A stretch of DNA of 48,489 nt, counting the filler, from Jimgerdemannia flammicorona (lineage: Eukaryota), in NCBI GenBank assembly GCA_003990765.1. It is 2 parts of 2 records of this genome, joined end to end, with 100 filler letters (N's around TTAATTAATTAA, not from the genome) between each part and the next. Parts side by side here need not be neighbours in the genome. Positions count along the whole stretch, not along the records: positions 1 to 24,202 come from RBNJ01001008.1; 1 more part is not named here. The stretch is one strand, 5' to 3'. The notes beneath the pieces were generated by a model, which searched no databases, was not told the DNA's origin, and worked only from the letters and a program-made list of their open reading frames with translations. Both the position numbers and the translations under genes were made by a program. Shown one piece after another: positions 1,738 through 46,700 of the stretch; within the stretch, counting starts at the first letter, position 1, and each line of letters begins with the position of its first letter.

Positions 1738-3191
1738 TGTGACAAACCACAAAACGTAGCAATCTCAAAAACCTAACCAGGTGACATGAACATTAGCATA
1801 GCATAGTAACCAGCAACCATTGCTGCGGAAAAATGTATAAATAACCAGATAGCCAAAGAAGGGAATAATGTGAACAGTGGCTGTCCCCTAGACAGTGGCT
1901 GTCCACCAGACAGTGACCGTCCACCCAAACACACCATAGATAGCAAATCTATAGTTAGCCAGGTAGCAACCAGATAGCAACCACAATGTATAAATTACCC
2001 CAGAGACAAGAGTGAATAAACCTCAGTCTGAAATTCAAAGCAAAAGACAAGTCTGCCTACCATACTTTGAGAGAAACTCTACAGCCACTGCTAGGAGATT
2101 GTGAGCTTATTTCCCCACTCTGGTCCACTTTCTGACACAAAGAACAAGTCTGAAATACAAACACCAAAGAAGCCTCTAAAGATTGAGCATTGGTCCCCTT
2201 TCCACTCTGGTCTACTTTCCGATACAAAGCTGATTTTGCTGCCTAAGTTCAAGGAGAACTTCGCTACCTTTTGAAGAACCTGCTGCTTAAGGAATAAGCC
2301 ATGCTATTGGTATGCTTGCCAGATAAGCCTGAAGAACCCAAGTTTTCGCTGTCATTCTTGCCACAAGCCAGTCTTTCTGATGCAACTTCACAGTAGAGCC
2401 AGTCTACAATGCAACCCCATGTAAATGAAGCCAGTCTTTGACGTAACTTGTCAAGAATCTGAGTTATTTCCCAGAAGCCCGCTGATTCTGGAGAATCCGC
2501 ATCATCCGCCGTTTTCGAGTTATCCACATTCCCAGTTGAAGTCACCAATTCAGGAAGAATCCATGCCATCGTATTCCCAGAAGAGCCTGCCGATTCAGGA
2601 AGAATCCACGTCATCCAAGTAGTATTCCCAGTTGAAGCTAAATCTGCGTCATCTGAGTTATTTGTTGTTCCCAGTAAGCCCAAGGAGAACCCATTGCCAG
2701 TACAATTCCCAGTAAGAAGGATCCATGCCACCCTCTATTCCCAGTGAGCCAAATTGAGTTATTTGCCAAATTATCAGAATGTCCTGCATAGGGAACTCGT
2801 CACGCTACACAGAGATTGCCACCCAAATCGCATAAGAAAAGCCACCAAATTACCAGACCATCATGTACAGAGATCGTCGCGCTACACAGAAATCACCCGT
2901 TACTCAAGAAGGAAACCACTCATGCTACACACAAATTCTGCCATTTCCAGTTGACCCAGGAAGGAAACTCATTCACACAAATCACTGCTATACCCAGAGA
3001 ACTGTCCCAATTAGGAAATCAACATACAAATTGCTTGCAGATATCCAGCTTTGACTATTATACCACTAAACACCAAGGACCTCAGGAATCTTAGAACATT
3101 TTGTTACTTTTGACAAAGTAACTGGGGGCTCAAGCCAAACTACATCAATCCCCAACCTTGTAATTTGTCTCCATTGAGCCGGCACATTACA
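1738..3191 (+). repeat. 5' LTR of element 1 (1454 bp)
   Basis: TGTGACAAACC...CACATTACA, colinear with 10752-12196. Contains an internal 18-bp triple repeat (cagtggctgtcc..., ~1875-1925) and repeated attcaggaagaatcca/ttcccag motifs. Confidence 0.97.
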
Positions 3192-3193
3192 TT

Positions 3194-3210
3194 TGGGGGC
3201 TCAACTGGGA
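3194..3210 (+). other. Primer-binding site, tRNA-Pro type
   Basis: TGGGGGCTCAACTGGGA lies 2 nt after the LTR end and resembles the tRNA-Pro PBS TGGGGGCTCGTCCGGGAT of MLV. Homologous sites occur in elements 2 and 3. Confidence 0.8.
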
Positions 3211-3224
3211 AGATTTTAAAATCA

Positions 3225-5198
3225 ATGTGACTTTTTAGCTCACAAGAACCCACAGTCAAACTGGATACATTTGATACAACACCAACCTCTGCCACTACAG
3301 GAGAACCAGTCATCACTAGTATTTGGACAGGAAGAGAAATAATTACATCAAGACTTGCCAATTACCCAGCATCAGAAGGATCCCAACCAGAACTAGAAGG
3401 CAGTACAGCTTGAAATCCCCAACCAGATCAACTAGACAATACAGACAGCCCTGCTAGAGATTTTGGAGAACTTGCACAAGAACTAGAAGATCTTATTACA
3501 TGGACCCGAGACCTTACAGCCAGACACCCCAGATCAGCCCCACCAATCTCACCAATAGAACCTTTATCACAACCCCTTGCAGAGCCAGAAGTAGCTTCTA
3601 CAAGAATACCTAGACCTATTCCACTTCATCCAAGGTCCAGAACACCATCATCAAGATACCCAAGCACCCCCATCTCCAGTGACAGCTCAGAAAGTGAATC
3701 AGAATCAGAATCCAAACTTGAACCAGAATCAGAAGAAAGTGACAATGAAATGGCCACCTCATTGCCAATCTTTGCAGGATACCTGGAGGAAGACCCCAGA
3801 GAATTTCTTGATGGAATTGAAGGAATTGCAGCCTTGAGAAATCTCTCAGATGAAAGAAAAATTGCCATCTACAAAGCTCAGCTCAGAGAACCAGCCAGAG
3901 GAATTTTCCATCAAACAGTAAATAACTGAGATTCAGAACTAGCAAGACAGATATAAGCAGCAATGTCTGACAAGTTAGAATATGAGGCCATGGTCCACTG
4001 GCTCATCAAAAAGTATGCAGGAAATGAAACCTGCCACAAGGCTCAAGAATCTATCATGGGAATGAAGATGAATCTTGGAGAATCACCCAGAGCCTTCTTC
4101 ATAAGAATCCAGAAGAGAATGTATGCTGCCAGGTTCAATGCCACCAACCAGGACATCATTGATCCAATGACCTTCATGAATGGAATTCCCCCAAATATTG
4201 CCCAACATGTCTACACTCTAGGCATCAGAAGGTCTGAAGAGCAAGTAGATGCAGCCCAAGGATTCTTTGATGTCAGACAAGGAACTACTTGGAGTAACCA
4301 TGATAGGAAAGAAGATAAAGAAGACATTCTGGTCAAAGCCCTACAAGGACTACTTCAAGGACAAGAAAGATATGAAGAAAGAATGCCAGCCAAGGAAGGA
4401 AAGAAGGATAGAAGTGAAATCCAAGACCTTAGCTCCAAGTTGGACTGATTGGTTGGACAGATTGAAAAACTCACTATATGAGAAAATTGGAGCCATCAAG
4501 ACAATAGAGGATACCCACCACAGAGGAGCCAAGGTTATCCACCAAGAGATAACAGGAATTACCAGCAAGAAGAAAGAAGGTACCCTGTCCGAGACAGAGC
4601 CCAAGTCCAATGCTTCTACTGTGGACAATTTGGACACTATGCCACCGAATGTGACAATAAAAAAAGTGACCGAAGGGACTCAGAAGCACCAAACTGAAGG
4701 AATGACACTCAGTACAAAAAGACTGAAGCCTATCCTGTTGAAGATTTCGAAGAAACAAGCAACAGTGAAGACTACAGTGACCTAGACTTGTACTCTGCTA
4801 AGGTTACAACCCAGAAAACAGTCTATCCAGCAGAGAAAAGAAAGAGACCTGTAGGAAGACCATCTAGGAACATCAGCAGAAGAATTATCCAAGAAGAGGA
4901 TGATGAACATGAGGAGGAACAAGTAGAAACACCTCCCCGAACTCCTTCACCTTTTGTCCCCAAGATAAATGAGTTGCCACCAGAAGATGAAGAAATGGAA
5001 CAAGAAGAACAGGAACCTGCTGCTCCAAAGTCTAAGAAGAAGTACACTCTGAAGACCATGCCTAGAGACATTTACAATGAAGCCTGGCAGAAGATTCAAG
5101 AAGCCAAGATGGAAGTCCCTCTCCTGCAGTTCCTGCAACTGACACCAGCCAGAGTCCGAAACAAATCGCTGAGAACCACCAGGTCTAGCACTGGCTGA
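3225..5198 (+). pseudogene. gag: Gag (Pro/Ser/acidic N-terminal extension, capsid-like domain, CCHC zinc knuckle, acidic linker)
   Basis: ATG at 3225 is in frame with ORFs 3963 and 4788. LPIFAGYLEEDPREFL from 3750; CFYCGQFGHYATEC at 4611-4652. Several in-frame stops are explicable as C>T changes. Confidence 0.88.
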
Positions 5199-5249
5199 GT
5201 TCCAATCCCAAGCAAGAACCAGCTTCCATCCCTGTCCAAGCAGCTGAAA

Positions 5250-5635
5250 GACATGTCAGCACCTACTTACATAGAGATATTGGAGGACAAAAGGCGAAAA
5301 TCCTCATAGACACAGGAGCAGCTGTCTGTATTATTGCCAAACAGTTCCTAGACACCCTTCAATGGCCCATTGATGGACCATCCAACCTCAGCATCATAGT
5401 AGCAGATGGAGCCCAAACTCAACCCCTTGGAGAAGTACAAAATATCACCATTTCCCTTAGACACATTCAGTTCTCCATCTCTAAAGCTATTGTCACCGAA
5501 GCTGTTACCTATGACATGATTCTTGGTACCAACTGGATGAAGAAAATGAATGCAGTTGTTGACATTGGCCAACAAGTACTCAAGTTTGATTACCAAGGCA
5601 AGAAATATAAAGTTAAGGTGACCAGCTACGAGCAA
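5250..5635 (+). pseudogene. Retropepsin aspartic protease domain
   Basis: KILIDTGAAVCII (D at 5309) and YDMILGTNWM motifs. Confidence 0.92.
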
Positions 5636-6915
5636 TCAAAGAAGAAGAAGAAGGTCACTATTCAGGAAGAATATGCCAGCAGTGAAGAATCTACCACAGA
5701 AGAAGAAGAAGAATCTGAAGATGGAAATGATCCCAGACTCAATCCCCAAATCAATCTGGTGGATGACCGACCAGAAGATAATGTGTGGGCCAAGAACACT
5801 ATCCCTATTACTATTGGAGCTATTGCAGGAGAAGCCAAAGGATGCCCTACATGCCTCAAGAGACACAAGTGTCCTGAGCACTCCTCCAAGATTATGGGAA
5901 CAAGGAAATCGCCAGGCACAGCCTGCCCAGAGTGCAGAAGGAAGAAGAAGAAATGCTGACATGTTCCAGAAACACCTGCAACCAAAGCTGCAGAAGTATA
6001 AGCAATTTGGAGTCAAGAATCATCTGAGGAAGAAGAAACTTCTGACCAACAAGTTCCTGAACAAGAAGCACCTGATGAAGAAGAGATCCCCAAACTCATT
6101 CCCTGGAATGACCCTTGCTGGACACCACCTGGAGACAATGACCCTTGGAATACAGAAGAAGGACCCAGTATAATCACCATTATCCCCAAGAAAGAAACCC
6201 ACCAAGAGAAAGCTTTTCGGCTAGGAAGATGTCAACACCAAATGGTCTTCTACTCTCCCCAAGACTACTGCTATCAGTGTCATCTGTTGGACCAACAAGA
6301 AAGACAGAGACCCCAGAGACCAGAACCCCCGAACACACTTGCACAGTCAACTACCTTTCAAGAAGTCACCACCAAGCTGCAAAGCCGATTCAGGGGGCAA
6401 GGCTTCTTCACCCAGACAGAAATATATCCCTTGTCCACACTTCCACCCACTTATGACCAAGATGGGTACCAATTCCTGAGACAACAGGAGATAAACAGCC
6501 AGGAACAACATTTCCAAGCAATGGGATACTGCAATTATGGAAGACACCCTGACTGCCAAGACTGCAGACATCAGAAGATCCACCTTAGTCATGACATTGC
6601 AGTCCATACTTTAAAGAGAGGAGACAATAGGGACCAGATCCGAAAAAGCCAAACCAAGAAGCCAGGAAGAAGAATTCTCAAGATCTACAATTTGGGAGAA
6701 GACATCCTGGCTCTCATTAGACATGCAACCCACCAAGGATGGGCAGAAGATGCTACCAACTTCATGGAAGCCCTAGACCCTACAGGAAGAAGAGGAATCA
6801 ACTACCTCCAAGACCCCTCTACTGGAGCCAGATGGCCACACCTCAACCTTAGAGCTTGGAGGCTTTCTGCTAGTGGAGCTTCAGCCCTAGGAAAGCCTGA
6901 ACTCAGCAAGGATAT
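5636..6915 (+). pseudogene. Uncharacterised ~430-aa polyprotein insert between PR and dUTPase, with Cys/His clusters and acidic stretches
   Basis: CPTCLKRHKCPEH...CPECRRKKKKC(R)H, CQH...CYQC and CNYGRHPDCQDCRH are in the PR frame. The region is also present in elements 2 and 3. Confidence 0.75.
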
Positions 6916-7325
6916 TGCCCAGTATCCTGCTGCACCCCAAGGCCAAACCACCGACCAAAGCTCACCCAGAGGATGTGGGATATGATCTTCACAGCCTGGA
7001 GGATGAATCTATCAAGCCTGGAAAAACCTTCATGGTCAGAACTGGATTAGCCATACAGCCACCCCAAGGAGCTTATATTTAACTAACCTCAAGATCCAGA
7101 CTTGCCAGACAAGAGATAACTGTAGAAGGAGGAACCATTGACCCTGGATATACAGGCGAAATCAAGGTTATCCTATACAATAGCAGTGCAGAATGGCACT
7201 GAATCATCAGAGGACAGAAGATTGCCCAAGCAGTCTTCATGAAGATCAAGACCCCACAGTTACAGGAAGTCTCTGAACTAACTGAAGGAACAAGACAAGC
7301 CAAGGGATTTGGAAGTTCAGATAGG
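6916..7325 (+). pseudogene. Trimeric dUTPase domain
   Basis: All five motifs are present: VGYDL, TSRSRLA, GGTIDPGYTGEIKV, GQKIAQ, RQAKGFGSS. There is a 2-bp deletion near 6927 relative to element 2, and two premature stops. Confidence 0.93.
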
Positions 7326-7672
7326 AAGGAGGTACATCTCCTTCAAGTCAACCACCTCAAGAGGAATGTTCTCCAGCAAGTGTACTGGCAACCAGTCAGA
7401 CTGCACAAGAATCTCATCCTGGAGCCTGGGGAACAAACTACCTTCGAAATCTTTACACCACTGGACCCCAGAAACCTTTTCTTCGAACCCAAGGAAGATA
7501 TCCCACACCTGGACATAAAGGGACACACATTCCCTGACAAGATGAACCCAGTACACTCCTGAGCAACCAACCAAAGTTGGGAGACCATCATCTTGCCAAA
7601 AGGAACCATCATAGGACATCTGGTGCCTTTTCTCAACCGAACTCATAGGGAAGTTTATGAACTAAACCTATT

Positions 7673-7720
7673 GGGAAACAGCAAAAGGTCTCAGAAGAAA
7701 GGAAAGGCCCCTCTGCGACC
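7673..7720 (+). promoter_or_regulatory. Putative programmed -1 ribosomal frameshift signal (G_GGA_AAC, 7-nt spacer, hairpin)
   Basis: The heptamer at 7673-7679 is in X_XXY_YYZ phase. GGTCTCAGAAG (7687-7697) pairs imperfectly with CCTCTGCGACC (7710-7720). The zero-frame stop is at 7731 and RT begins in the -1 frame. Element 2 has the same frame offset. Confidence 0.65.
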
Positions 7721-7729
7721 CAGGAGACA

Positions 7730-8760
7730 GTGAAGCCTTCCACCAACATTGGAGAAGAATTGACACCTCAACAACAGCAACAACTAGTAGAACTTCTCAA
7801 CAAATATCAAGATATCTTCACTACCAATTATGGCAACCTGCCATACAATCCATCATATCACCACAGTATAAATACAGGAAATGCAACACCCATCCGGCAG
7901 AAACCCTATAGAATACCCCATCACTTGAAAATATTCGAAAAAGAGCACATTCAAGAACTCTTAGACAATGGAGTCATCCGACCCTCTACCAGCCCCTGGG
8001 CCAGCCCTATACTTATTGTACCAAAGAAAGGAGGATGGAGACTCTGCAGTGGATTATAGGAAACTCAATTCAGTCACCGAAAAGGATGCATATCCTCTAC
8101 CCAGAATTGATGACCTCTTAGATCAGTTACAAGATGCCAGATACTTCAGCAGTATGGACCTCTTTGCAGGATTCCATGAGATCTCCATGGACCCAAAGGA
8201 CATCCAAAAGACAGCCTTCCTTGCTCTAGGAAAACTGTTTGAATACCTCCGAATGCCTTTTGGACTTTGCAATACACCCCCCACCTTTCAGAGGATGATG
8301 AATTTGGTCTATGCCCTCTTGATCCACCACTGTCTGATTGTATACATGGATGATTCCAACATCTATTCAGCAAATTTCGAAGAACACCTGCACCACCTAG
8401 AGGAATTCTTCAAGCTCACTCGCAAGAATCACTTGAGATTGAATGCAAAGAAATGCTACTTTGGGAAACAGAAACTTGAATTCCTGGGATTCATGGTTTC
8501 AAAAGAAAGAACTCATGCAGACCCAAAGAAAACTGAGAAGATCAACAATTGGCCAGTACCCAAGACTCCAAAGGAAACACTATCATTCCTGATGCTAGTA
8601 TCCTACTACAGAAGGTTTATCAAAGATTTTGCCCAAATCGCTGCCCCAATCCGAATCCTTCTCAAGAAAGAAGTGCCATTCAAATAGACAGAATCACAGG
8701 AAAAAGCCTTCAGAGAACTCAAGAACCACATGACTACAGCACCAATCCTTGTGTGCCCCA
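7730..8760 (+). pseudogene. pol: Reverse transcriptase (Ty3/Gypsy)
   Basis: PYRIP, SPWASPILIVPKK, VDYRKLN, YPLPRIDDLL, RMPFGLCN and YMDD (8343). A 1-bp insertion near 8050 is absent from element 2. Confidence 0.96.
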
Positions 8761-8769
8761 ATCTATAGA

Positions 8770-9135
8770 AGCCATTCATCTTGTATATAGATGCTTCTAA
8801 AGATGGCCTTGGGGCAGTCCTGTCTCAAGAAGGATGTGATCAACAGCACCATGTGATAGCTTATACAAGCAGGGCTATCAACCAGCAGCAGATGAACTAT
8901 GGTAGCACTAAACTGGAATGCCTTGCAGTCATATGGGCAGTTACCCTGTTCAAGCATTACCTCATCAGAAAAAGGTTCACCCTGATCACAGACCATACAG
9001 CCCTCAAATGGCTATTCAACTGCAAGGAACCTACTGGAATCCTAGCCCGCTGGATCCTTATCCTTCATGATTACAAAATCACCATTATTCACAAAGCAGG
9101 GAAGCCCACAACAATGTTGATGTACTTTCCTGCCA
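8770..9135 (+). pseudogene. RNase H
   Basis: LYIDASKDGLGAVLSQ, KLECLAVIWAV, FTLITDHTAL and LARWILIL. Confidence 0.93.
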
Positions 9136-10209
9136 GCCCCAATGAACCAGAAGAAGGGTGTCTTGAGGAACCACACCCTAAAGGAAGCTCCTCAGACTAT
9201 CAAGGCACAAGAAGATCTCATCTGAAAAGAACAACAGAAAGCCCACCAAGGACAGACAAGTACAGAAGACAAGATTCAAAAACAATATCAACATTGGCCC
9301 CACCTCAGAACTCAAGTCTGAGACATCATTCAGAAATATGACACCTGTCAGAAGTACCAAGAAAAGAAGAACTATCAAGCCCCTCTGCAACTGATTCCCC
9401 CACCCACTCACATCTTTCAAAGATGGAGAGTAGATGTAATTGGACCCCTACCAGTTACACCAAGAAGAAACAAATACATCCTAGTATTTGTAGAACATCT
9501 GACTAAGTGGCCTGAGGCTTTCCCAATGGAGATTGCAGATGCCTTAACCATTGTAGGCCTCCTCCATAGACTCACACTCAGATATGGAGTCCCCGAAGAA
9601 CTTATCTCTGATCGAGGCACAGAATTCATCAACAACATAATCATAAGTTATGCCCAAATTCACAAGATCCACCTCAAAAGGACCACATCATACTACCCTC
9701 AGACCAATGGCATGACAGAAAGAATGAACCAGACCATCAAGAAAGGACTTGCCTGAGTCAATCCTACTAATTGGGATCTCTGCTTACCTGAGATCCTATG
9801 GGAAATCTGAAATACCCCTGCTGCATCAACCAAACAAAAGCCCTTTGAAATGATGTTTGCCAAGAAGACCAGAACTGCTGACCATGAGAACCTCAGAAAG
9901 CTTCTTGAAAAGAGAGATCAGCTGTGAAATAAAGCCCGAATCCAGATCATCAAGGCCCAGGAAAGACAAAAGAAGTATTATGACCAGAAACAGAAGGATC
10001 AGAAGATCAAGATTGGTGATCAAGTTCTAGTTTGGAGAAGCATGATAGAAACAAACTTTGCCACCAAACTGGAACCCAAATGGGAAGGACCTTATCTTGT
10101 ACACAATATCAGAGGAACTGGCATCTATTTAAGAAGCATGGATGGACGAACCCTGAGAACAGTAGTACACATCAATCACCTCAAACTATATCTCCCCTCT
10201 ATACCATGA
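9136..10209 (+). pseudogene. Integrase (degenerate HHCC, DDE core, GPY/F; no chromodomain)
   Basis: VDVIGPLP, LISDRGTEF, YPQTNGMTERMN and PKWEGPY. The frame ends ...HLKLYLPSIP* at TGA 10207-10209. Confidence 0.93.
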
Positions 10210-10712
10210 GCCAAAGGATTGATTGGCACCTCCAGACATTGGTCCTCAGCTCCTTCCAGGCCCTACCAGTTCCCTTACCCCAGTTCCACCAACTTGAAGG
10301 AACCCCAATACAATTGATCCAAAAGCATCAAGAGAACCTTGTCATTACCCAAAGATTGTTACAGATCTATTATCTACAGGCCTTCTACAACATTGGACAA
10401 TTACTTGAAGAACAACCATACATTGGAGGACCAGCTGGGATAACCCGCCAAGAAGCCAGAACTGCCAAATGAATCTACACACTATACAAATAAAATGTTG
10501 GAGCCCTAGTGCAATCTCACTTCTACCTCAATGATATTCATCAGATGAATGAGACCACCTTTCAGAGTATTCTCCAACAAGTGGACATCCTATTTCCCGA
10601 AGGACAAAAAGAAGATCTGGAGCTAGAATGGAGTGACCCTGATACAGACAATGAAGATGATGGGACAGGTATAGATGCAGAAGCAGCTTATGCCTATTGG
10701 GATGATGACTGA
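10206..10712 (+). pseudogene. Extra 168-codon ORF (ORF3) of unknown function between integrase and PPT
   Basis: ATG at 10206 overlaps the IN stop (ATGA). The frame joins listed ORFs 10032-10472 and 10509-10712 across two stops (TGA 10470, TAA 10491) that fit CGA/CAA C>T changes. The C-terminus is acidic. Confidence 0.8.
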
Positions 10713-10739
10713 AGAACAGTCTGAGACAGACTATCCTTC

Positions 10740-10751
10740 AGTGGGGGCTGA
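10740..10751 (+). other. Polypurine tract
   Basis: AGTGGGGGCTGA lies immediately before the 3' LTR. Confidence 0.75.
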
Positions 10752-12196
10752 TGTGACAAACCACAAAATGTAGCAATCTCAAAAACCTAACCAGGTGACG
10801 TGAACATTAGCATAGCATAGTAATCAGCAACCATTGCTGTGGAAAAATGTATAAATAACCAGATAGCCAAAGAAGGGAATAATGTAAACAGTGGCTGTCC
10901 TCTAGACAGTGGCTGTCCACTGGACAGTGACCATCCACCCAAACACACCATAGATAGCAAATCTATAGTTAGCCAGGTAGCAACCAGATAGCAACCACAA
11001 TGTATAAATTACCCCAGAGAATAAACCTCAGTCCGAAATTCAAAGCAAAAGACAAGTCTGCCCACCACACTTCGAGAGGAACTCTACAGCTACTGCTAGG
11101 AGATTGTGAGCTTATTTCCCCACTCCGGTCCACTTTCTGACACAAAGAATGAGTCTGAAATACAAATATCAAAGAAGCCTCTAAAGATTGAGCATTGGTC
11201 CCCTTTCCACTCCGGTCCACTTTCTGATACAAAGCTGATTTTGCCACCTAAGTTCAAGGAGAACTTCGTCACCTTTTGAAGAACCCACCACTTAAGGAAT
11301 AAGCCATGCTATTGGTACGCTTGCCAGATAAGCCTGAAGAAACTAAGTTTTTGCTGCCATTCTTGCCATAAGCCAGTCTTTCTGATGCAACTTCACAGTA
11401 GAGCCAGTCTATGATGCAACCCCATATAAACGAAGCCAGTCTTTGATGTAACTTGCCAAGAATCTGAGTTATTTCCCAGAAGCCCGCCAATTCCGGAGAA
11501 TCTGCATCATCCACCATTTTCAAGTTATCTGCATTCTCAGTTGAAGCCACTGATTCAGGAAGAATCCATGCCATCATATTCCCAGAAGAGCTTGCCAATT
11601 CAGGAAGAATCCATATCATCCAAGTAGTATTCCCAGTTGAAGCCGAATCTGTGTCATCTGAGTTATTCATTGTTCCCAGTAAGCCCGAGGAGAACCCGTC
11701 ACCAGTACAATTCCCAGTAAGAAGGATCCACACTACTCTCTATTCCCAGTGAGCCAAATCGAGTTATCTGCCAAATTATCAGAATGTCCTGCATAAGGAA
11801 CTCATCATGCTACACAGAGATTGCCACCCAAATCATATAAGGAAAGCCACCAAATTACCAGACTGTCATGTATAGAGATCGTCGCGCTACACAGAAATCA
11901 CCCATTACTCAAGAAGGAAACTGCTTGTGCTACATACAAATTCTGCTATTCCCAGTTGACCCAGGAAGGAAACTCATTCACACAAATCGCTGCTACACCC
12001 AGAGAATCATCCCAATTAGAAAATCGACATACAAATCGCTCACAGATATCCAGCTTTGACTATTATACCACTAAACACCAAGGACCTCAGGAATCTTAGA
12101 ACATTTTGTTGCTTTTGACAAAGTAACTGAGGGCTCAAGCCAAACTACATTAACCCCCAACCTTGTAATTTGCCTCCATTGAGCCAGCACATTACA
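10752..12196 (+). repeat. 3' LTR of element 1 (1445 bp)
   Basis: Direct repeat of 1738-3191 lacking 9 bp (caagagtga). The other differences I inspected are C/T and G/A transitions. Confidence 0.97.
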
Positions 12197-14945: not shown

Positions 14946-16075
14946 CTTTTTTTTTTTTTTGTTTAACAGACTCATGTCCTGCGGATTTTTATTGGAAGAG
15001 AACCTAGACTATATAGGCCAAAACCCTCCCCCACCACCCACCAAGCACTGCCCCCCCATTAATCTAGGCTAGCTATTGTCCAGCAGCTCGACCATGCCAG
15101 GCACAGCAGGGCCGATGTAGACCCACACCTCATTCTGCACACCATGCTCTCCCTACCACCAGGGGAAACCCAACCATATGCCAATGACTGAAAGCGCATG
15201 CCTGAGAACCCAATGTATGTACAAGGCTATGCCTGAGCCGAATAGAATAGCCCCTGCCACCCCAAAGAGAATGACAGGTAAAGAAAAAACACTCATCAAA
15301 GCACAACATGGTGGGTAGGGTCTGGTTCTCCCAGTCAAGGTGAGTAAAGAACTTACATGTGAGGTGGGAGGAAACCCCCAATACCCCACTACTCAAGCCT
15401 GTAGGCCTCGATCATGTTGCCACATCAGCTCTCAGTTTCAGTTGAGTGCAGCCAAGATGCCTGAAATAGGTAGCCTCAGACCTCCCTATCTTCTTCATCA
15501 CCTGTCTCTCAAGAGTTGGCAGCCCTTCTACCACCAGACATAATGCATGTGGATCCCACCTCAGATACCTTACCATTCCAATCTTGATGCTCTTGACTAC
15601 CAACCCTTTCTCCAGAGCCTTCACCATCTTCTCCTCCTCCATGAAGCCAATCTCCACTGCCTCCACTGATGGAATGAACTTCAGGGACTCTGCATCAGCA
15701 ATCTTCTCTCCCACTAGCTGCAAAACCTCCCTGGCAGACAAGCCCAGTCCCAGAAAATTCACCAAGATCATCTACATCAATACTGATTTGTAGAAAAAAG
15801 AATGCACTACTAGTTCTCCAGAGCTAGCTACCATTGTCACCTTCTCCTTACTTTCTGAGATACCAGCAGTCACCCCACCAGCCACAGGAAGCTCACCAGC
15901 AGTTCTACCTCCAGCCATCAGTTCAGCTATCAGCCCAGCCCCAGGAATGCCAGTCTCAGCTGTCCCACCTCTGGACCCCTGTCCCCTGGCAGTCACCTGA
16001 CCTGCTATCTGACCAGTTACCTGACTCCCCCCCCTGTCAACACTATGTCTCCCCTGCCCTACCTCCATGGGCCTA
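14946..16075 (-). mobile_element. LINE-derived element: ORF1 N-terminal part joined to a non-ORF2 3' tail and poly(A)
   Basis: ORFs 15772-16068 and 15412-15771 (ILVNFLGLGLSAREVLQLV...VEIGF...MVRYLRWDP) resemble ORF1 of the other LINEs. AATAAA and a T-run (~14947-14960) are present. Confidence 0.7.
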
Positions 16076-19000
16076 GTGTCCTCAGAGTTTATCCATCTAT
16101 GCTTCTTAAATAGATACTAGTTCCTCTGATATTGTGTACAAGATAAGGTCCTTCCCATTTGGACTTCAGTTTGGTGGCAAAGTTTGTTTTAATCATACTT
16201 CTCCAAACTAGTACTTGATCTCCAAACTTGATCTCCTAATCCTTTTACTTCTGGTCATAATACTTCTTTTGTCTTTCTTGAGCTTTGATAATCTGGACTT
16301 AGGCTTGATTACATAACTGATCTGCCTTCTTGAGGAGGTCTCCAAGATTCTCATGGTCAGCAGTTCAGATTTTCTTAGCAAATATCATCTTGAATGGCTT
16401 TTGTTTAGTAGAGGCAGCAGAGGTGTTACAAATTTCCCATAGAATCTCAAGTAAGCAGAGATCCCAGTTGGTAGGATTAACTTGGGCAAGTTCTTTCTTG
16501 ATGGCCTGGTTCATTCTTTCTATCACACCATTGGTCTGAGAGTAGTATGATGTGATCCATTTGAGGTAGATCTTGTGAATTTGGGTATAACTTGTAATCA
16601 TGTTGTTGATGAATTCTGTGCCTCAGTCTGAGATGAGTTCTTCTGAAGATCCATATCTGAGTGTGAGTTCATAGAGGAGGCCTACAATGGTTAAGACATC
16701 TGTGATTTCCATTGGGAAAACCTCAGGCCACTTGGTCAGATATTCCACAAATATAAGGATATACTTGTTTCTTCTTGGTGTAACTGATAGGGGTCCAATT
16801 ACATCTACTCCCCATCTTTGAAAGATGTTGTCTGGTGGTATGATTGGTTGTAGTAGTGCTTGATAATTCTTCCTTCCTTAGTACTTCTGACAGGTGTCAC
16901 ATTTCTTGAGTATATCCTGGAGTTATGTTCTGAGATTAGGCCAATATTTGTGTATTGTTTGCAACTTTTCTTCTATATTTGTCTGTCCTTGATGGGCTTT
17001 CTGATATTCTTTTTAGATGAGATCTTTTTGTGCCTTAATGGTCTGAGGAGCTTCCTTTAGGGTGTAGTTTCTTGGAACACCCTTCTTCTGGTTCATTGGG
17101 GTTGGCAGAAAAGTATATCAACATTGTTGTGATTGTGAATGATGGTGATTTTGTAATCCTGAAGGATAAGGATCTAGCATGCTAGAATTCCAGTAGGTTC
17201 CTTATAGTTGAATAGCCATTTGAGAGCTACATGGTCTGTGATCAGAGTGAACCTTTTTCTGATAAGGTAATGCTTGAACAAGGTGACCGCCTATATGACT
17301 GCAAGGTACTCCAGTTTGGTGCTACCATAGTGTTATTGGCCAAGTCCTTCTTAGACTAGAACTGCTCCTAAGTCATCTTTGAAGGTATCTGTATACAAGA
17401 TGAATGACTTCTGTAGATTGGGGCAGATAAGGATTGGTGCTGTAGCCATGTGGTTCTTGAGTTCTTTGAAGGCTTTCTCTTATAACTCTGTCTATTTGTA
17501 AGGTACTTCTTTCTTGAGAAGGATCTGGATTGGGGCAGCAATTTGGGCAAAGTCCTTAATAAACCTTCTGTAGTAGGATACTAGTATCAGAAATGATAGT
17601 GTTTCCTTTGAGGTCTTGGATACTGGCCATTGTTGATCTTCTTGGTTTTTTTTGGATCTATATGGATTCCTTCTTTTGAAACTATAAATCCAAGGAATTC
17701 AAGTTTCTATTTCCCAAAGTAGTATTTCTTAGCATTGAGTCTCAGGTGGTTCTTGTGAGTGAGCTTGAAGAATTCTTCCAGGTATCCTTGAAATTTGCTG
17801 AATAGATGTTTGAATCATCTATATATACAATCAGGCAGTGGTAAATCAAGGGGGTATAGACTGAATTCATCATCCTCTAGAAGGTGGGGGGGTGCATTGC
17901 AAAGTCCAAAGGGCATTCAGAGATATTCGAACAGTTTTCCTAGAGCAAGAAAGACTGTCTTTTGAATGTCATTTGGGTCCATGGAGATTTCATGGAATTC
18001 TGCGAAAAGATATATACTGCTGAAGTATCTGGCATCTTGTAACTGATCCAAGAGGTCATCAATTCTGGGCAAAGGATAGACATCCTTTTCAGTGACTTAA
18101 TTGAGTTTTCTGTAGTCTACACAGAGTCTCTATCCTCCTTTCTTTGGTACAATAAGTATAGGGCTGGCCCAAGGGCTAGTTGAGAGTCAGATGACTTCAT
18201 TGTCCAAGAGTTCTTGAATGTGCTCTTTTTTGAATGTCTTTAGGTGATGGGGTATTCTATAGGGTTTCTGCTGGATGGGTGTTGTATTTCCTGTATTTAT
18301 ACTGTAGTGATATGATAGATTGTATGGCAGGTTGCCATAGTCTGTAGTAAAGATATCTTAATATTTATTGAGGAGTTCTACTAGTTGTTGCTATTGCTGG
18401 GGTGTCAATTCTTCTCCAGTGTTGGTAGAAGGCTTCACTGTCTCCTGGGTCACAGAGGGGCCTTTCCTTTCTTCTAAGACCTTTTACTATTTCCCAATAA
18501 GTTTAGCTCATAAACTTCTCTATGAGTTCAGTTGAGAAATAGCACCAGATGTCCTATGATAGTTCCTTTTGGCAAGATGATGGTTTCCCAACTCTGGTTG
18601 GTTGCTCAGGAATATACTGGGTTCATTTTGTCAGGAAATGTGTGTTCTTCTATATCCAGATATGGGATATCTTCTTTGGATTCAAAGAAGAGATTCCTGG
18701 GATCAGGTGGTGCAAAGATTTCGAAAGTGGTCTGTTCTCTAGGCTCTAGGATGAGATTCTTGTGTAGTTTGATTGGTTGGCAGTACACTTGCTGGGGGGC
18801 ATTCCTCTTGAGGTGATTAACCTGAAGAAGGTGCACTTCCTTTATATCTGAACTTCCAAATCCTTTGGCTTGCCTGATTCTCTCAGTCAGTTCAGAGACT
18901 TCTTGTAACTGTGGGGTTTTGACTTTCATAAAGACTGCCTGGGCAATCTTCTGTCCTCTTATAATTTGGTGCCATTCTGTACTGTTATTGTGCAGGATAA

Positions 19001-22000
19001 CCTTGATTTCACCTATATATTCTGGGTCAATAGTTTCTCCTTCTACAGTTATTCCTTGTCTGGCAAGCCCAGACCTTGAGGTCAGTTGAATGTAAGTTCC
19101 TTGGGGTAGCTATATAGCTAGTCCAGTTCTGATCATGAATGTTTTTCCAGACTTAATGGATTCATCCTCCAGACTGTGAAGATCATATACTACAACTTCT
19201 GGGTAGGCTTTGGTTGAGGGTTTGGCCTTGGGATGTAGCAGGGTATACTGAGTAACATCCTTACTAAGTTTGGGCTGTCCTTGGGCTGAAGCTCTGCTAG
19301 CAGAGAGCCTCCAGGCTCTGAGGTTGAGGTGTGGCCATCTGGCTCCAGTGGAGGGGTCTCAGAGATAATTGATTCCTCTTTTTCCTGTAGGGTCTAGGGC
19401 TTCCATGAAGTTGGTGGCATCTTCTACCCATCCTTGGTGGGTGGCATGTCTGATGAGAGCTAGGATGTCTTCTCCTAAATCATAAATCTTGAGGATCCTT
19501 CTTTCTGGCTTCTTGGTCTGGCTTTTTCAGATCTGGCCTCTGTTATCTTCTCTCTTCAGAGTGTGGATTGCAACATTATGGCTGAGGTGGATCTTCTGAT
19601 GTCTGCAGTCTTGGCAGTCTGGGTGTCTTCCATAATTACAATATTCCATTGCTCAAAAATGCTGTCCCCTGTTGTTGATCTCTTGTTGTCTTGGGAACTA
19701 GTACCCATCTTGATCATAAGTTGGGAGAAGAGTGGATAAGGAGTATACTTCTGTTTGGGTGAAGAGACCTTGTCCTCTAAATCAACTTTGTAACTTGGTG
19801 GTAGCTTCTTGTAAGGTGGTTGACTGTGCAACTGTAGTCAGGGGTTCTGGTCTTTGAGGTCTTTATCTTTCTTACTGATCCAGTAGATGGCACTAATAGT
19901 AATAGTTTTGGGAAGAGTGGAAGACCATATGATACAGATATCTTCCTAGCCAAAAAGCCCTTTCTTGGTGAGTTTCTTTCTTGGATATGATGGGAATTAT
20001 GCTGGGTCCTTCTTCAGTGTTCCAGGAGTTATCATCTATGGGTGGTGCCCAGCAAGAGTCATCCCAGGGGATGAGTTCAGGGACTTCTTCCTTTTTGGAT
20101 ACTTCCTGTTCAGGAGTTTCTTCTTTCTCAGATGATTCTTGACCCCAGATTGCTTGTACTTCTGCAGCTTTAGCTATAGGTATTTCTGGGACATGTCTGC
20201 ATTTCTTCTTCTTCTTTCTGCACTTGGGGCAGGCTATGCCAGGTGAATTCCTTGTCCCAATAATCTTGGAGGAGTGCTCAGGGCATTTTTGTCTCTTGAG
20301 GCAGGTAGGGCATCCTTTGGACTCTCCTGCAATAGCTCCAATAGTAATAGGAATGGTATTCTTGGCCCACACATTGTCTTCTGGCCTGTCATCCACCAGG
20401 TTGATTTGGAGATTGAGTCTGGAATCATTTCTATTTTCAGATTCTTCTTCTTCTTCTGTAGTAGACTCTTTACTGCTGGCATATTTCTCCTGGATAGTGA
20501 TCTTCTTCTTCTTCTTCAATTGCTCATAACTGATCACCTTAACTTTGTACTTCTTGTCTCAGTAGTCAAACTTGAGTACTTGTTGACTGATATCAACAAC
20601 TGTATTCATTTCCTTCATCCAGTTGGTGCCAAGGGTTATGTCATAAGTAACAGCTTCAGTGACAACAGCCTTTAGGATAGAGAACTGAATGTATCCGAGA
20701 GAGATAGTGATGTTTCATACTTCTCCAAGGGGTTGAGTTCGGGCTCTATCTGCTACTATGATGCTGAGGTTGGATGGTCCATCAATGGGCCATTAGAGGG
20801 TATCCAGGAATTGTTTGGTAATGATACAGACAGCTGCTCCTGTGTCTATGAGGATCTTCACCTTTTGTCCTCTAATGTCTCCATGTAAATAGGTGCTGAC
20901 ATGTCTCTCTGCAGCCTGGATAGGGGTGGGGGTTGGCTCTTGCCATGGGACTGGGACCCAGCCAGTACTAGATCTAGTAGTTCTCAGTAATTTGTTTCAA
21001 ACTCCAGCCAGTGTCAATTGTAGGAACTGCAGGAGAGGGACTTCTATCTTGGCTTCTTGAATCTTCTGCCAGGCTTCATTGTAGATATCTCTGGGCATAG
21101 TCTTTGGGGTGTACTTCTTCTTAGGCTTTGGGGTAGTAGGTTCTCATTCTTCTTGCTCCATTTTTCATCCTCTGGTAGCAACTCATTTATTTCAGGGACA
21201 AAAGATGATGGAGTCTGGGGAGGTGTTTCTACCTGCTCTTCTTTATGTTTTTCATCTTCTTTTTGAACAATTCTCCTGCTGATATTCCTAGATAGCCTTC
21301 CTACAGGTCTTTTCCTTTTCTCTGCTGGGTAGACTGTCTTTCAGGTGGTGACTTTGGCTGGGTACAAGTCTAGATCACTGTAGTCCTCACTGTTGCTTTC
21401 TTCTTCAAAATCTTCGACAGGATGAGCTTCAGTCTTCTTATACTGAGTTTTATTTCTTTAGTTTGGTAATTCTGGGTCCCTTCAGTCACCTCTTTTATTG
21501 TCACATTCAGTGACATAGTGTCTGAATTATCTATAGTGGAAGCATTGGACTTGGGCTCTGTCTCAGACAGGATATCTTCTTTCTTCTTACTGGTAGTTCC
21601 TGTTATCTCTTAGTAGATAACCTTGACTCCTTTGTGGTGAGTATTCTCTGTTGTCTTGATAACTCTGATTTGTATATATGGTGAGTTTTTCAATCTGTCC
21701 AACCAATTGGTCTAACTTTGAGCTCAGGTCTTGAATTTCACTTCTGTTTTTCTTTCCTTCTTTGGCTGGCCTTCTTTCTTCAGATCTCTCCTGTTCTTAA
21801 AGGAGTCCTTGCAGGGCTTTGACCAGGATATCTTCTTTGTCATCCTTCTTATCATGGTTACTCCAGATAGTTCCTTGTCTGATATCAAAGAATTCTTGGA
21901 CTATATCTACTTATTTTTCAGACCTTCTGATACCTAGGATGCAAATATGCTGGGTAATGTTTGGGGGAATTCCATTCATGAAGGTCATTGGACCTATGAT

Positions 22001-24050
22001 GTCTTGGTTGGTGGCATTGAACCCAGCTACATGCATTCTCTTCTGAATTCTTGTGAAGAATGCTCTGGGTGATTCTCTAAGATTCATCTTCATCCCTATG
22101 ATGGATTCTTGAGCCTTGTGGCAGGTTTCACTTTCTGCATATTTTTCAATGAGCCAGTGGGCCATAGCTACATATTCTAGCTCATAGGATGCTGCTGCTT
22201 ATATTTCTGCTGCTAGTACTGAGTGTGGGTCAGTTACTGTTCAGTGGAAAATTCCTCTGGCTGGTTCTCTGAGCTGGACCTTATAGATGGTGATTTTCCT
22301 TTCATCTGAGAGATTCCTCAGGGCTGCAATTCCTTCAATTTCATCTAGGAATTCTCTAGGGTCTTCCTCTGGATATCCTGCAAAGGTTGGCAATGGGTTG
22401 GTCATCACTTTCTTCTGATTCTGGTTCTGATCTGGATTCTTATTCAGATTCTGACTCTGATTTGCTTTCTGAGCTGTTGCTGGAGATGGGGGTACTTGGG
22501 TATCTTGAGGATGGTGTTATAGATCTTGGATGAAGTAGAATGAGCCTAGATATCCTTGAAGGAGCTGCTTCTAATTCTACAATAGCTGGTGGTAAAGATT
22601 CAATAGGTGAGATTGGTGGGACTGCTGTGTAGTATCTGGCTGCTGGATTTCAGGCTTGTATAATAAGATCTTCTAGTTCTTGGGCAAGTTCTTCAAAGTC
22701 TCCAACAGGGTCTCCTATGATATCTGGTTAATCTGATTGAAGATTTTGGGCTATACTGATTTCTGATTGAGATCTTTCTGATGCTGGATAATGGGCAGCT
22801 CTTGAGGTAATTACTTCTCTTCCTGTCTAAATGCTAGTAATGACCAGTTCTCCTGTAGTGACAGAGATTGCTATTATATCAAATGTATCCAACTTGACTG
22901 TGGCTTCTTGTGAGCTAAAAAGTCATATCAATTTGAAAATATTTCCAGTTGAGCCCCTAAATATAATATACCTGGCTCAATAGAGGCAAATTATAAGGTT
23001 GGGGGTTGATGTAGTTTGGCTTGAGCCCCCAGTTACTTTGTTAAAAGCAACAAAATGTTCTTGTTATTTTAGCAGTATAATAGTCAAAGCTGGATATCTG
23101 TGAGTAATTTCCTTTTTGGGACAGATTCTTAGAATTTGTATGCATGGTGGTTTCTGTATAGCATGACAATCTCCAAAAGTATGTGATTTCTGCATGATAA
23201 TCTCTATGTAGTGTGGCAATTTCCTTATACATGACAGTCTGGCAATCTGGCAGTTCTTTTTATATATAATGGTCTGGCAATTTGGCAGTTCTTCTTATAC
23301 AAATTTAGCAGACAACTCAATTTGGTGCAAGTCCTCCTAAATTGGTAGTGCTTCTGAGAATTAACTCAAATGACTTGGATGTTACAGATTCTTCCTGAAT
23401 CAGTGGCTTTAACTGGAAAAAGAGATGGCATGGATTCTTTCTGAACTGGGCTCACTGGGAATAATAACTCAGATAGTATGGATAACTTAGATATCACAGA
23501 TTCTCTCTGAATCAGCAGGTTCTCTGGGAATATGATGGTGCAGATTCTTCCTGAATTGGCAGCTTCAACTAGGAATATGAACAACTGGCAGCTTTGGGAA
23601 AGGGTCTCTTGGCAAAGTTATATCAAAGACTGACTTTATTTGTATAAACAGATTCACTGTGAAGTTGTATTAGAAACTGGCTTGAGCAAGGCAGCTTTCT
23701 CTTAGGTAGTGAAAAAGGCAGAAATCTTCAGGCTTATCTGGTAAGTATACTAATAGTATAGCTTATTTCTTAAGCAGTGGGTTTCTTTTCAAAAGGTGGC
23801 AAAGTTCCTTCTTGAACTTTAGCAGCAAATCTTCAGCTTTGTATCAGAAAGTGAACCAGAGTGAGAATAAGGGGACCAATGCTCAATCTTTAGAGGCTTC
23901 TTTAGTTTGTACTTTAATTCAGACTGAGGTTTATTCACTATTGTCTCTGGGGTATTTTATATATTGTAGTTACTACCTGGTTGCTATGTGGCTAACTATA
24001 GACTTGCTATTTGTGGTAATGTTTAGATATATCCTCTAGATATAGGTGTG
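16076..24050 (-). mobile_element. Second copy of the dUTPase Gypsy family (element 2), lacking the IN end, ORF3 and an adjacent 3' LTR
   Basis: Reverse-complement colinear with element 1: IN ~16076-17090, RH ~17130-17410, RT ~17450-18440, dUTPase ~18845-19250, PR ~20560-20890, gag ~21000-22928, PBS 22943-22959. It has many more stops than element 1. Confidence 0.95.
22962..24050 (-). repeat. 5' LTR of element 2, with its 5' end cut by a LINE tail
   Basis: Adjacent to the PBS and homologous to the element-1 LTR with indels. Ends at the T-run starting at 24053. Confidence 0.88.
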
Positions 24051-24052
<2 letters not shown>

Positions 24053-24095
<43 letters not shown>

Positions 24096-24202
24096 GTCTC
24101 TTGTACTGCCCTTTATTACGGTATCTATAGTGTCTACAATATCAGTCACCCACTTATTCAACCATTGCTTTATGTGCTCTTCTCTTTTTTTTTTTTTTTT
24201 TT
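24053..24202 (-). mobile_element. Very short LINE 3'-end fragment between two poly(A) runs
   Basis: T-run 24053-24092, then atagtctcttgtactgccctttatt (the shared LINE terminus), then a second T-run running into the gap. Confidence 0.75.
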
Positions 24203-24302
24203 NNNNNNNNNNNNNNNNNNNNNNNNNNNNNNNNNNNNNNNNNNNNTTAATTAATTAANNNNNNNNNNNNNNNNNNNNNNNNNNNNNNNNNNNNNNNNNN
24301 NN
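24203..24302. other. Artificial contig spacer (44 N + TTAATTAATTAA + 44 N)
   Basis: A six-frame-stop linker centred in exactly 100 bp. Confidence 0.97.
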
Positions 24303-43700: not shown

Positions 43701-46700
43701 TCAGTTATACTACTTGGGAATCCCAATACAAGCACTGGGTCATGGGGATCACTACTCCCCCCACTATCACTCTTTTCTCCATTACCTCCAATAGTACCTC
43801 CTCCTTCTTAAAATCAATCTTCACCCCTTCTAGTCTCTTCAAAAACTTCACTAAAATAGCCCCCTTCACCTCCTGGGCCAGAAGCCCCAGAATCATCCTC
43901 ACTAATACTGCCAAGCCTCAGAAATATAATATAATAGTAAATTCTGACCTTGATTTTTTGTGTAATAGTACTACCACCAGTCCTGTCACACTATCTGCCA
44001 GATCTCTGAGCCTCATGCCAATCCCCTGTTCAGATCTACCATTAATTATCATATCTGGATTTTTTTCCAGATTAGTAGTCCCCTCACTATCAGCAGTCTC
44101 ACTCTCTCCAGCTACTACTCCCCCAGCCCTACTGCTCTCACCACTATAGGCCACTCCCCCAGAACCTACAGCTCTTGCCATCTCCTTGCCCCTCCTTAGC
44201 CAGCCCTCCAGTCCAGTCATCATCATTGGTCAACCTTCCTCCACCTTATCTGTAAAGCTCATTCTCTCTATCTCCTGTCCCTCAGTACTGCCTCCTCTCC
44301 TTCCATGTTCTCCAGCCAGCAAGCCCCTCATACTTCCTCCCAAGTCATGACTTCTCCCCACATACTATCAGTCAAATGCACTAGTACTATCCTGCCTAGC
44401 ATATACCTCAGAATGCTCAATAGTTGCTATATTGCTAGTATCTTCTCTCCAAAAATGAAGTCATAAGTATTGATAGAAGATTATATAACTTGAATATTAC
44501 TGAAGAAAGGGTGTCAACAAAATGAGTTCATAGAAGAGATCATTACATCTATATAGAGGTATAACCCTTAGCTACTCTTCTCTCTATCTATAATAGAGAA
44601 GATTATCAATTTCTAAGACAGCAAGAAGTTGATAACTAAAAATAATACTTTTAAGTAATAGAATACTGCTTTTATAGAAAACATCTAAGCTGCTAAACCT
44701 ACCAATATGAGAGGATATACCTTAGCTAAGATATCATAGTATATATACTCAAGAGAGGAGATAATATAATTAAGATTAGAAGAAGCTGAGCCAAGAAATC
44801 CATAAAAAGAATTCTTAAGATCTATAATCTAAAAGATGATATTCTTGCTCTCATTAGATATATATGTAACTTACCAAGAATGAATAAAGGATGCCATCAA
44901 CTTTATAAAAGCCCCAGACTCTACTTGAAGAAGTGGAATTAACTATTTCCAAGACTCCTTTACTGAAGTCAGATAGCTACACCTTAATATTAGAGTATAG
45001 AGACTTATAACTATAGAAGCCTCATTCTAAGGATAGCCTGCTCTCAGTAAAGATATTGCATAGTATGTTCTGAAGGCAGATTCTCAATAAAGGTCCACAA
45101 GGAAGATATAGACTATAATCTTTACAATCTCTAAGATAATACTATTAGCTCTAGAAGTACAGTACTCCTTAATATAGAAATTACTATATAGTTATCCTAA
45201 GGAATCTATATTCAACTAACCTCAAAATCTAGACTTACAAAATAAGAAATTACTACAGAAATAGTAATAATAGATCTAGAATATATAGGCAAAATCAAGA
45301 TTATCTTGAAAAATAGTAATACTGAATAAATTTGAATCTATAGAGAAGAGAAGATTTCTCTAGCAGTCTTTATAAAGATTGAAACACCTCAACTTCAAAA
45401 AGTTTCTGAACTGATCCAAGATATGAGACAGACTGAAGAATTTAGAAACTCAATAAGTATAGTACTAATTAGTAAAACTTCTCAAGAACCTTATTCTGAA
45501 ATCAGAAGAGCACACTATTTTTGAAATATTTATACTACCAGTTCTCAGAAACTTATTCTTTAAACTAAATAAAGATCTCAATAATCTTGATATAGAAGAA
45601 TATACAATTCTTAATAAGATGAATTATATATACTTTCAAGCAACTAACCAAAGCTGAAATAGTCTCATTCTACTAAAAAGAATCATTATAGGCTATCTGG
45701 TACTCTATTTTAATTAGATATATAGAGAAGTTTATAAACTAAACTTATTGAAAAATATAGAAGAAAAGAAAGACCTTTCTGTCATCTAGGAGAAAGTAAA
45801 GTCTTTCATCAATATTAGAGAAGAATTGATCCCTTAGCAATAGCAGCAACTAGTAGAACTCTTTCATAAATATCAGGACATCTTTACTATAGACTATAGC
45901 AATCTGCCATATAACCTATCATATTACTACAGTATAAATACAGGAAATTTAACACTCATCTAGCATAAGTCTTATAAAATACCCCATCATCTAAAGATAT
46001 TTGAGATGGAATATATTTAGAAACCCTTAGACAATAGAGTTATCTGATCCTCTACCAGTCTCTAGACCAGCTCTATACTTATTATACTCAAGAAAAGATG
46101 ATGAAGACTCTGTATAGATTACAGGAAGCTCAACTTAGTGATAGAAAAAAAAAAACTACTCTTTGTCTAAAATTGATAATCTTCTAGACTAATTACAAGA
46201 TATCAGATACTTTAGCAGTAGAGATCTTTTTGCAGAATTCTACAAGATATTGATATTTAGAAAACAGTCTTTCTTATCTTAGACAAATTATTTAAATATC
46301 TCCAAATATTTATTATACTCTATAATATATCCCCAATCTTTCAGAGAATGATAAACTAGTCTATATTCTACTGATCCACTACTGTCTGATTATATATAGA
46401 TTATTACAATATTTATTTAGCAAACTTTGAAGAATACCTATACTATCTAAAAGAATTCTTCCAGCTCAACTATAAGAACCATCTGAGACTCAATACTAAG
46501 AAATATTACTTTGGAAAACAGAAACTCAAATTCTTTAAATTTATAGTTTCTAATGAAGAAATTCTGTCAGATCTAAAGAAAACTGAGAAATCAATAACTG
46601 GTTAGTATCTAAGACTCTAAGAAAAACACTATTATTTTTTATACTAGTATCTTACTATAGAAGATTTATTAAAAACTTTACTCAAATTACTACTCTAATT

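Follow-up and report, generated by a model that had tools for sequence, protein, structure and literature searches.

Programmed -1 ribosomal frameshifting is common at the gag/pol border in retrotransposons with long terminal repeats (LTRs) (2003 survey, cited via PMC5009743), and Rous sarcoma virus uses it as well (PMC5009743). In mammalian systems, the slippery heptamer G_GGA_AAC is one of those most prone to shifting (PMC5009743), and it is the shift site of PEG10, a gene derived from Gypsy (PMC2800197). In betaretroviruses, dUTPase and protease are both encoded ahead of the pro-pol -1 shift (PMC2238898), and there are plant LTR retrotransposon groups, e.g. Ogre, whose first open reading frame (ORF) is GAG-PROT (PMC6317226). 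Among fungal Gypsy elements, PosPlaTy3-5 of Postia placenta carries a dUTPase between protease (PR) and reverse transcriptase (RT) (PMC2864245), and in the accessible part of that article the word frameshift occurs 0 times. Here we describe a Ty3/Gypsy family with three decayed copies in a 48,489-nucleotide stretch of Jimgerdemannia flammicorona DNA (assembly GCA_003990765.1; two joined parts with 100 filler letters between them; hereafter the window). By comparing these copies with related sequences, we conclude that active members of the family probably express RT-RNase H by programmed -1 frameshifting at a G_GGA_AAY heptamer situated downstream of dUTPase.

Two of the three copies, designated e1 (1738..12196, + strand) and e2 (23110..16073, - strand; 83.6% identity to e1 by self-comparison), share a -1 offset between the frame of the dUTPase side (frame 0, codon starts divisible by 3) and that of RT. 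In e1, the resulting overlap of ORF1 (frame 0) and ORF2 (frame -1) is 73 nt long (7661-7733, + strand). Its 5' limit is the stop codon at 7658..7660 that closes the -1 frame upstream (TGA in e1, e2 and the related contig L001 described below, TAA in the third copy, e3), and its 3' limit is the ORF1 stop at 7731..7733 (TGA in e1 and e2, TAA in L001 and e3). Within the overlap lies TTG GGA AAC (7671-7679), in phase with ORF1, which places the heptamer G_GGA_AAC at 7673..7679 (+ strand). Alignment to e1 locates the heptamer of e2, GGGAAAT, at 18489..18495 (- strand), and the two copies show no indel over 601 nt across the junction. The initial part of ORF2 in e1 (7661..8059, + strand) is open and encodes a linker and the N-terminus of RT, before being cut at ~8048 by a 1-nt insertion absent from e2 and L001. 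An earlier examination of this DNA (the sequence-only reading) had already reported the in-phase heptamer, the zero-frame TGA at 7731, the -1 RT frame and the same offset in e2, all of which were recovered at these positions. It had also attributed further frameshifts of e1 at ~5210, ~6927 and ~8050 to decay; in agreement, these frame breaks are indels relative to e2 at 5210, 6925 and 8048, with zero indels between the last two.

The same arrangement is found outside of the window. The metagenome contig L001 (4101 bp, ~80% nucleotide identity to e1) carries an ORF1 ending at 1382 (with a single in-frame stop at 849-851) and an open ORF2 at 1310-2794 (494 aa, RT and RNase H). The two overlap by 73 nt, the heptamer GGGAAAC occupies 1322-1328, again in phase, and no indel separates L001 from e1 or e2 over L001 positions 700-1696. 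Contigs from four public runs (three labelled soil metagenome, one a coded organism) were additionally aligned on positions 7150-8150 at a likeness of at least 80%, giving 359 pieces (291 + 12 + 34 + 22), with indels listed from a 5% threshold. None was listed between 7150 and 8046; over the whole of 7150-8150 just two were listed, one omitting 1 nt at 8047-8049 and the other inserting 4 nt at 8130. Given that other copies omit the nucleotide at 8047-8049, the break of e1 at that position is private. The whole overlap was spanned with 0 gaps by 3 of the 32 listed contig records. The sequence-only reading had asked whether most copies might be in frame across this site, and the 359 pieces, which are without a listed junction indel, do not bear this out. 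On these alignments, the frame offset is a property of the family and not a product of decay, and annotation should consequently not count a break between the dUTPase and RT frames as a disabling mutation here.

Differences between L001 and e1 were tabulated by codon position on either side of the junction. Counted in frame 0 upstream of the heptamer, positions 1, 2 and 3 differ at 24/157, 16/156 and 54/156 sites, respectively; counted in frame -1 beyond the ORF1 stop, the values are 5/102, 2/103 and 26/103. Only 5 of 62 sites differ inside the overlap, where neither frame has a third-position excess. Frame-0 third positions differ at 1/21 sites in the overlap versus 54/156 upstream (Fisher p = 0.005), and the comparison of L001 with e2 gives 3/21 versus 67/156 (p = 0.016). 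L001 and e1 differ at 3 sites from the upstream -1 stop to the heptamer; every one of these is non-synonymous in frame -1, and 2 of them (both TTA/CTA) are silent in frame 0. Nucleotide identity between the two reaches its maximum (0.93 in 60-nt windows) just past the heptamer, with flanking values of 0.83-0.88 upstream and 0.73-0.83 downstream. Taken together, the codon-position, synonymous-change and identity patterns indicate that frame 0 is translated up to the heptamer and frame -1 after it, and that the overlap is additionally constrained.

The codon that ends in the first G of the heptamer is TTG in e1, CAG in L001 and TCG in most of the contig depth; the encoded residue varies, and the third-position G is constant among these forms. 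The T>C change at 7672 accounts for 106.7/177.5, 8.68/8.68, 9.1/9.1 and 5.91/12.8 of the depth in the four runs, where contig depth is a measure of neither copy number nor expression. At the other end of the heptamer, 7679 C>T is common among other copies, as seen in the contig variants, and both bases conform to G_GGA_AAY. A further 167 contig variant rows lie beyond those listed, and invariance of 7674-7678 is therefore not claimed. In L001, only 2 in-phase X_XXY_YYZ heptamers occur among 1317 in-frame codons, one of which is this site. The heptamer of e3 is degraded by G>A changes.

More distant relatives were sought with the dUTPase-plus-tail stretch of e2, the tail being the ~110 residues between dUTPase and the shift site. 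This exhaustive, profile-free search returned 8244 proteins at E <= 0.001, and among the best 150 of these, 3 reach the tail (P0001, P0002 and P0006). P0001 (226 aa, 76% identical) has S-G-N at the heptamer position and terminates at the point that corresponds to the stop at 7731. P0002 is an intact ORF1 product of 1179 aa (39% identical) with a zinc knuckle (CCHC), PR and dUTPase, and ends ~40 residues past the tail; P0006 (312 aa) likewise ends shortly past it. The C-terminal residues of P0002 include LPPTLE, and frame 0 of e1 reads SLPPTLEKN where the RT frame encodes KPSTNIGEE; from this shared motif, taken from the protein alone, ORF1 of P0002 appears to be in the same phase relative to RT as that of e1. 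With the offset common to e1, e2, L001 and the contig pieces, and P0002 in apparently the same phase, the original proposal of a programmed -1 shift between dUTPase and RT stands. P0151 is a separate RT-RNase H protein of 450 aa, the longest contig of which (6987 bp) is equal in length to that of P0002, and it lacks any Met ahead of the matching position in the RT core. A different architecture is seen in P0156 (783 aa) and P0183 (1250 aa), which lack the second dUTPase-like domain described below and in which dUTPase runs in frame into RT within ~30 residues. Protein word searches with the P0002 tail returned P0002 itself or nothing, a metagenome scan with the tail alignment returned L001 as the sole locus, and viral-contig and genome-contig scans with the tail and ORF2 alignments returned no locus.

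In the mechanism that we favour, ORF1 would encode Gag, protease, an insert, a canonical dUTPase, a second dUTPase-fold domain and a disordered basic tail, and ORF2 (RT-RNase H), lying in the -1 frame with a 73-nt overlap, would have no start codon of its own. A ribosome reaching G_GGA_AAY (7673-7679 in e1) would hold Gly and Asn tRNAs that could re-pair on GGG and AAA, after which translation would proceed in the RT frame. Most ribosomes would thus yield Gag-PR-dUTPase, and a minority would yield a fusion extended by RT-RNase H; the integrase would start from a third ORF at an ATGA stop/start overlap. We infer the slippage at the heptamer, as well as its rate and any help that it receives from a weak hairpin. 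The sequence-only reading had likewise envisaged an abundant dUTPase-side product and a scarcer shifted one containing RT-RNase H, and this division is retained; its inclusion of integrase in the transframe product is not, given that integrase occupies a third ORF with its own ATGA.

Several other accounts of the offset were weighed against frameshifting. ORF2 may be translated independently, through termination-reinitiation, non-AUG initiation or internal entry, with the heptamer being incidental, and we consider this unlikely. It would agree with the use of an ATGA stop/start overlap for integrase by these same elements, and with the unconvincing nature of the stimulatory structure for frameshifting. 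However, no ATG occurs at or near the ORF1 stop (TAA/TGA). In L001 and e1, the open -1 frame likewise contains none until the RT core has begun (the first Met of L001 ORF2 lies inside that core), and P0151 is similarly without a Met ahead of it. In addition, 51 nt of ORF2 coding sequence have already passed when frame 0 reaches its stop, such that reinitiation would skip conserved ORF2 codons, and the heptamer is kept in phase. A second account, in which the offset is itself decay, i.e. a 1-nt or 11-nt indel in a master copy inherited by a non-autonomous or dead lineage whose functional state was in frame, strikes us as very improbable. Long intact ORF2 and ORF3 accompany the offset in L001, the intact ORF1 of P0002 ends at the equivalent place despite only 39% identity, no junction indel is listed in the contig pieces, and purifying selection acts on frame 0 before the junction and on frame -1 after it. 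What speaks for decay is that every window copy is broken, that P0156 and P0183 fuse dUTPase to RT in one ORF, and that e3 is in frame. With regard to P0156 and P0183, their lack of the second dUTPase-like domain marks them as a different architecture. The in-frame state of e3 results from an 11-nt deletion (45750..45760, + strand) directly after the heptamer, which removes the spacer and the 5' arm of the predicted stem and joins the two frames, as the sequence-only reading had noted; it was rejected as the ancestral state, since e3 is hypermutated and has 7 internal indels, of which this deletion is one.

Joining of the frames at the RNA level has a precedent in Ogre, which bridges the same border by splicing (PMC6317226), and in e1 a 41-nt GT...AG pair (7654-7694) would restore the frame. 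Nevertheless, we hold this, too, to be very improbable. Frame-0 conservation runs through 7654-7679 (EVYELNL.GN in P0001, IYEFNLGK in P0002) and is accompanied by synonymous changes, and conservation of the RT frame from ~7733 leaves ~54 nt, less than a spliceosomal intron requires; moreover, the ORFs overlap, with no spacer between them. The 5' end of the candidate, GTTTAT, is far from the fungal 5' splice consensus. The 41-nt candidate intron was thus rejected, both for its length and for the frame-0 conservation through it, as was transcriptional slippage, the A runs being only 3-4 long.

It is important to note that several observations weigh against frameshifting at this heptamer. All three window copies are dead, and the heptamer is confirmed only within ~80% nucleotide identity (e1, e2 and L001). 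Its first G is lost in a minority of sequences (7673 G>A, which makes up 25.6/177.5 of the X1 depth and is present in the sole X3 contig). When 73-nt overlaps were shuffled or simulated 20,000 times, 9-13% contained an in-phase X_XXY_YYZ heptamer (Y = A/T) by chance, and the two codon-position tests, involving e1 and e2, are not independent since these copies share ancestry. The remaining points concern downstream structure. The sequence-only reading had described an 11-bp imperfect stem 7 nt past the heptamer. Such a hairpin is indeed predicted (7687..7720, + strand), its arms (7687-7697 and 7710-7720, at the 7-nt spacing) being complementary at 9/11 positions, with 7687-7690 and 7692-7695 paired to 7712-7715 and 7717-7720. 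It is the minimum free energy structure given by RNAfold for e1 (-10.4 kcal/mol, z +0.36) and L001 (-10.8 kcal/mol, z -0.32), and e2 folds differently from both. In stretches of 53, 81 and 93 nt, neither the hairpin nor the longer folds are stabler than dinucleotide shuffles (z -0.44 to +0.70). The stem shows no covariation, there being no compensatory change in its 8 pairs among the 3 sequences (7 of the 8 are invariant, and one C-G is changed one-sidedly to U-G). A crude H-type pseudoknot scan proposed AAGGC/GCCUU as a second stem, and this was equalled by 16-27% of 300 shuffles. The hairpin is neither supported nor excluded and is not used here as evidence for the shift.

The composition of ORF1 is best seen by combining the copies with their relatives. 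A trimeric-type dUTPase domain is located between PR and RT in this lineage. In e1, the Pfam domain order is PR, dUTPase, RT, RNase H, integrase, i.e. the Ty3/Gypsy order, which L001 shows as well. A zf-CCHC match is present in P0002, and the decayed gag-side ORFs of e1 have no Pfam match. The aspartic protease (5189..5956, + strand; Pfam gag-asp_proteas, 4e-11) lies in another frame in e1 because of the private indels at 5210 and 6925. Between protease and dUTPase is an insert of ~330 residues without a Pfam family (6002-6982, + strand), the equivalent part of P0002 being acidic and containing stretches rich in Cys/His. The C-terminal motifs of the canonical dUTPase are found in frame 0 at 7209..7319 (+ strand; Pfam dUTPase, 2.4e-05, profile positions 92-128). 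The domain is matched more fully in P0001 and P0002 (4.2e-17 and 1.3e-32, respectively, compared to the 2.4e-05 of e1) and in the e2 ORF at 18606-19109, where its motifs are visible.

The tail (7320..7640, limits approximate, + strand, frame 0; residues ~1040-1125 in P0002) matches no Pfam family. An AlphaFold model built from 3 sequences has predicted local distance difference test (pLDDT) scores of 79-94 in its core and below 50 over its final 55 residues, within which the shift site falls. The top PDB matches listed by Foldseek for this model are all dUTPases (E from 8e-4, template modelling score 0.39-0.60, identity 11-22% among those listed), including the two-domain Epstein-Barr virus dUTPase (PDB 2bsy, 2bt1). 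The tail is therefore predicted to be a degenerate second dUTPase-fold domain without catalytic motifs, such that ORF1 would end in a tandem dUTPase followed by a disordered basic tail. An in-frame TGA at 7560..7562 (+ strand) in e1 and e2 was considered as the true end of ORF1 and rejected, as the codon is CGA in L001 and R in P0001 (CAA in e3). C at 7560 makes up 51.6/86.2, 8.68/8.68, 27.1/35.9 and 2.1/8.9 of the depth in the four runs; together with the CGA or R of relatives, this identifies the TGA as a decayed CGA codon, altered at a CpG. Two further stops are present in e2, a TGA and a TAG, which correspond to e1 positions 7638-7640 and 7692-7694, respectively.

Downstream of the junction, e1 retains remnants of RT (7965-8684, + strand; Pfam RVT_1, 6.3e-30) and RNase H (8769-9338, + strand; Pfam RT_RNaseH, 1.8e-35), followed by integrase (9322-9753, + strand; Pfam). 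The stop codon of RT-RNase H overlaps the integrase start as ATGA at 9142..9145 (+ strand), within CAATGAACC, which is conserved in e1 (9140-9148), e2 and L001 (2789-2797); the ATGA itself is at ~17091-17094 (- strand) in e2 and at 2791-2794 in L001. ORF3 of L001 (2770-3855) is open and encodes 361 aa with rve and zinc-finger domains. P0151, from a distant lineage, also ends just past ...DVLSR. From its frame and its overlapping stop and start codons, integrase is a separate, -1-phased third ORF, which would leave it outside of the transframe product. We tentatively suggest that, in what may be a lineage of Gypsy elements of early-diverging fungi, two translational devices may operate in series to set protein doses, a -1 frameshift giving RT-RNase H and ATGA reinitiation giving integrase, and that the herpesvirus-like dUTPase may be as abundant as Gag and possibly a component of the particle instead of an enzyme present in traces; this combined scheme is possible rather than likely.

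Self-BLAST gives a size of ~10.4 kb for the element, as seen in e1, whose LTRs (1738-3191 and 10752-12196, + strand) share 91.9% identity over 1454 nt. At 12256-13136 (- strand) and 1488-1737, e1 is adjoined by further LTR-like fragments of this family, which are solo or truncated (65-89% identity to the e1 LTRs). The third copy, e3 (34959-38652 and 44604-47289, + strand), is AT-rich and is split by ~6 kb of inserted DNA (38652-44604). It is hypermutated, with C>T or G>A accounting for 218/329 of its differences from e1, and its 7 internal indels fall within a 1.3-kb stretch around the junction. Approximately half of all C's in CpA and CpC contexts are changed, as are 7/9 at CpG, and its GC content is ~0.28-0.33 (low-GC stretches also occur in 24001-28000). 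The base changes of e3 suggest a process resembling repeat-induced point mutation (RIP) or deamination. In e1 and e2, the changes at 7560, 7638 and 7672-7673 are CpG transitions (CGA>TGA or TCG>TTG/TCA), which arise repeatedly and independently among copies and are consistent with methylation-driven decay of the elements.

The placement of a recoding signal decides which proteins of a retroelement are abundant and which are scarce. With the signal at the position proposed here, this lineage would make protease and a two-domain dUTPase in parallel with Gag, RT-RNase H by a shifted minority of ribosomes, and integrase by a further device. Related dUTPase-bearing Gypsy elements that fuse dUTPase to RT in frame offer a natural contrast, and the junction itself is a compact candidate cassette for -1 frameshifting in fungi.

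When set against described systems, the locus resembles PEG10 and sushi-ichi-type elements in its signal: superfamily, heptamer and phase are shared, the -1 overlap is likewise short, and the ORF that follows also lacks a start (PMC2800197, PMC5009743). In PEG10, however, the shift occurs at the gag/protease border and is aided by an established pseudoknot, whereas here it would follow PR and two dUTPase-fold domains, and no convincing stimulator was found. Alpharetroviruses such as Rous sarcoma virus have a gag-pro/pol layout with one -1 shift, after protease. Gag-PR is correspondingly abundant and RT comes only from a shifted minority, as proposed for this family, but alpharetroviruses differ in using another heptamer and a long structured stimulator, in having no dUTPase, and in carrying integrase within the transframe Pol instead of in a third ORF. 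The betaretroviral arrangement is similar in that dUTPase accompanies protease ahead of a -1 shift into RT; it differs in requiring two shifts (gag-pro and pro-pol) and in placing dUTPase N-terminal to protease, in contrast to the single shift, the single ORF for Gag, PR and dUTPase, and the dUTPase located after protease seen here.

The sequence-only reading had called such a scheme atypical for Ty3/Gypsy, which holds only in part, as GAG-PROT is known as the first ORF in some plant groups (PMC6317226). Ogre is one of these and also has its ORF border after protease, not after Gag; its ORFs, however, are separated by ~274 bp that are spliced out as an intron, unlike the 73-nt -1 overlap and heptamer of the present family. 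P0156 and P0183, like PosPlaTy3-5, are of fungal Gypsy type with dUTPase between protease and RT, but these two proteins join dUTPase to RT in frame and have no second dUTPase-like domain. The monomeric dUTPase of Epstein-Barr virus also has a canonical fold followed by a degenerate copy in one chain, and the predicted resemblance to it is one of fold only. We found no description of this arrangement, or of the three-tier scheme, in the literature searched, which was limited in scope. Compared with these systems, neither the mechanism nor the heptamer is unusual; what is new is the combination of the proposed shift position, a predicted tandem dUTPase within ORF1 and a putatively reinitiated integrase in series.

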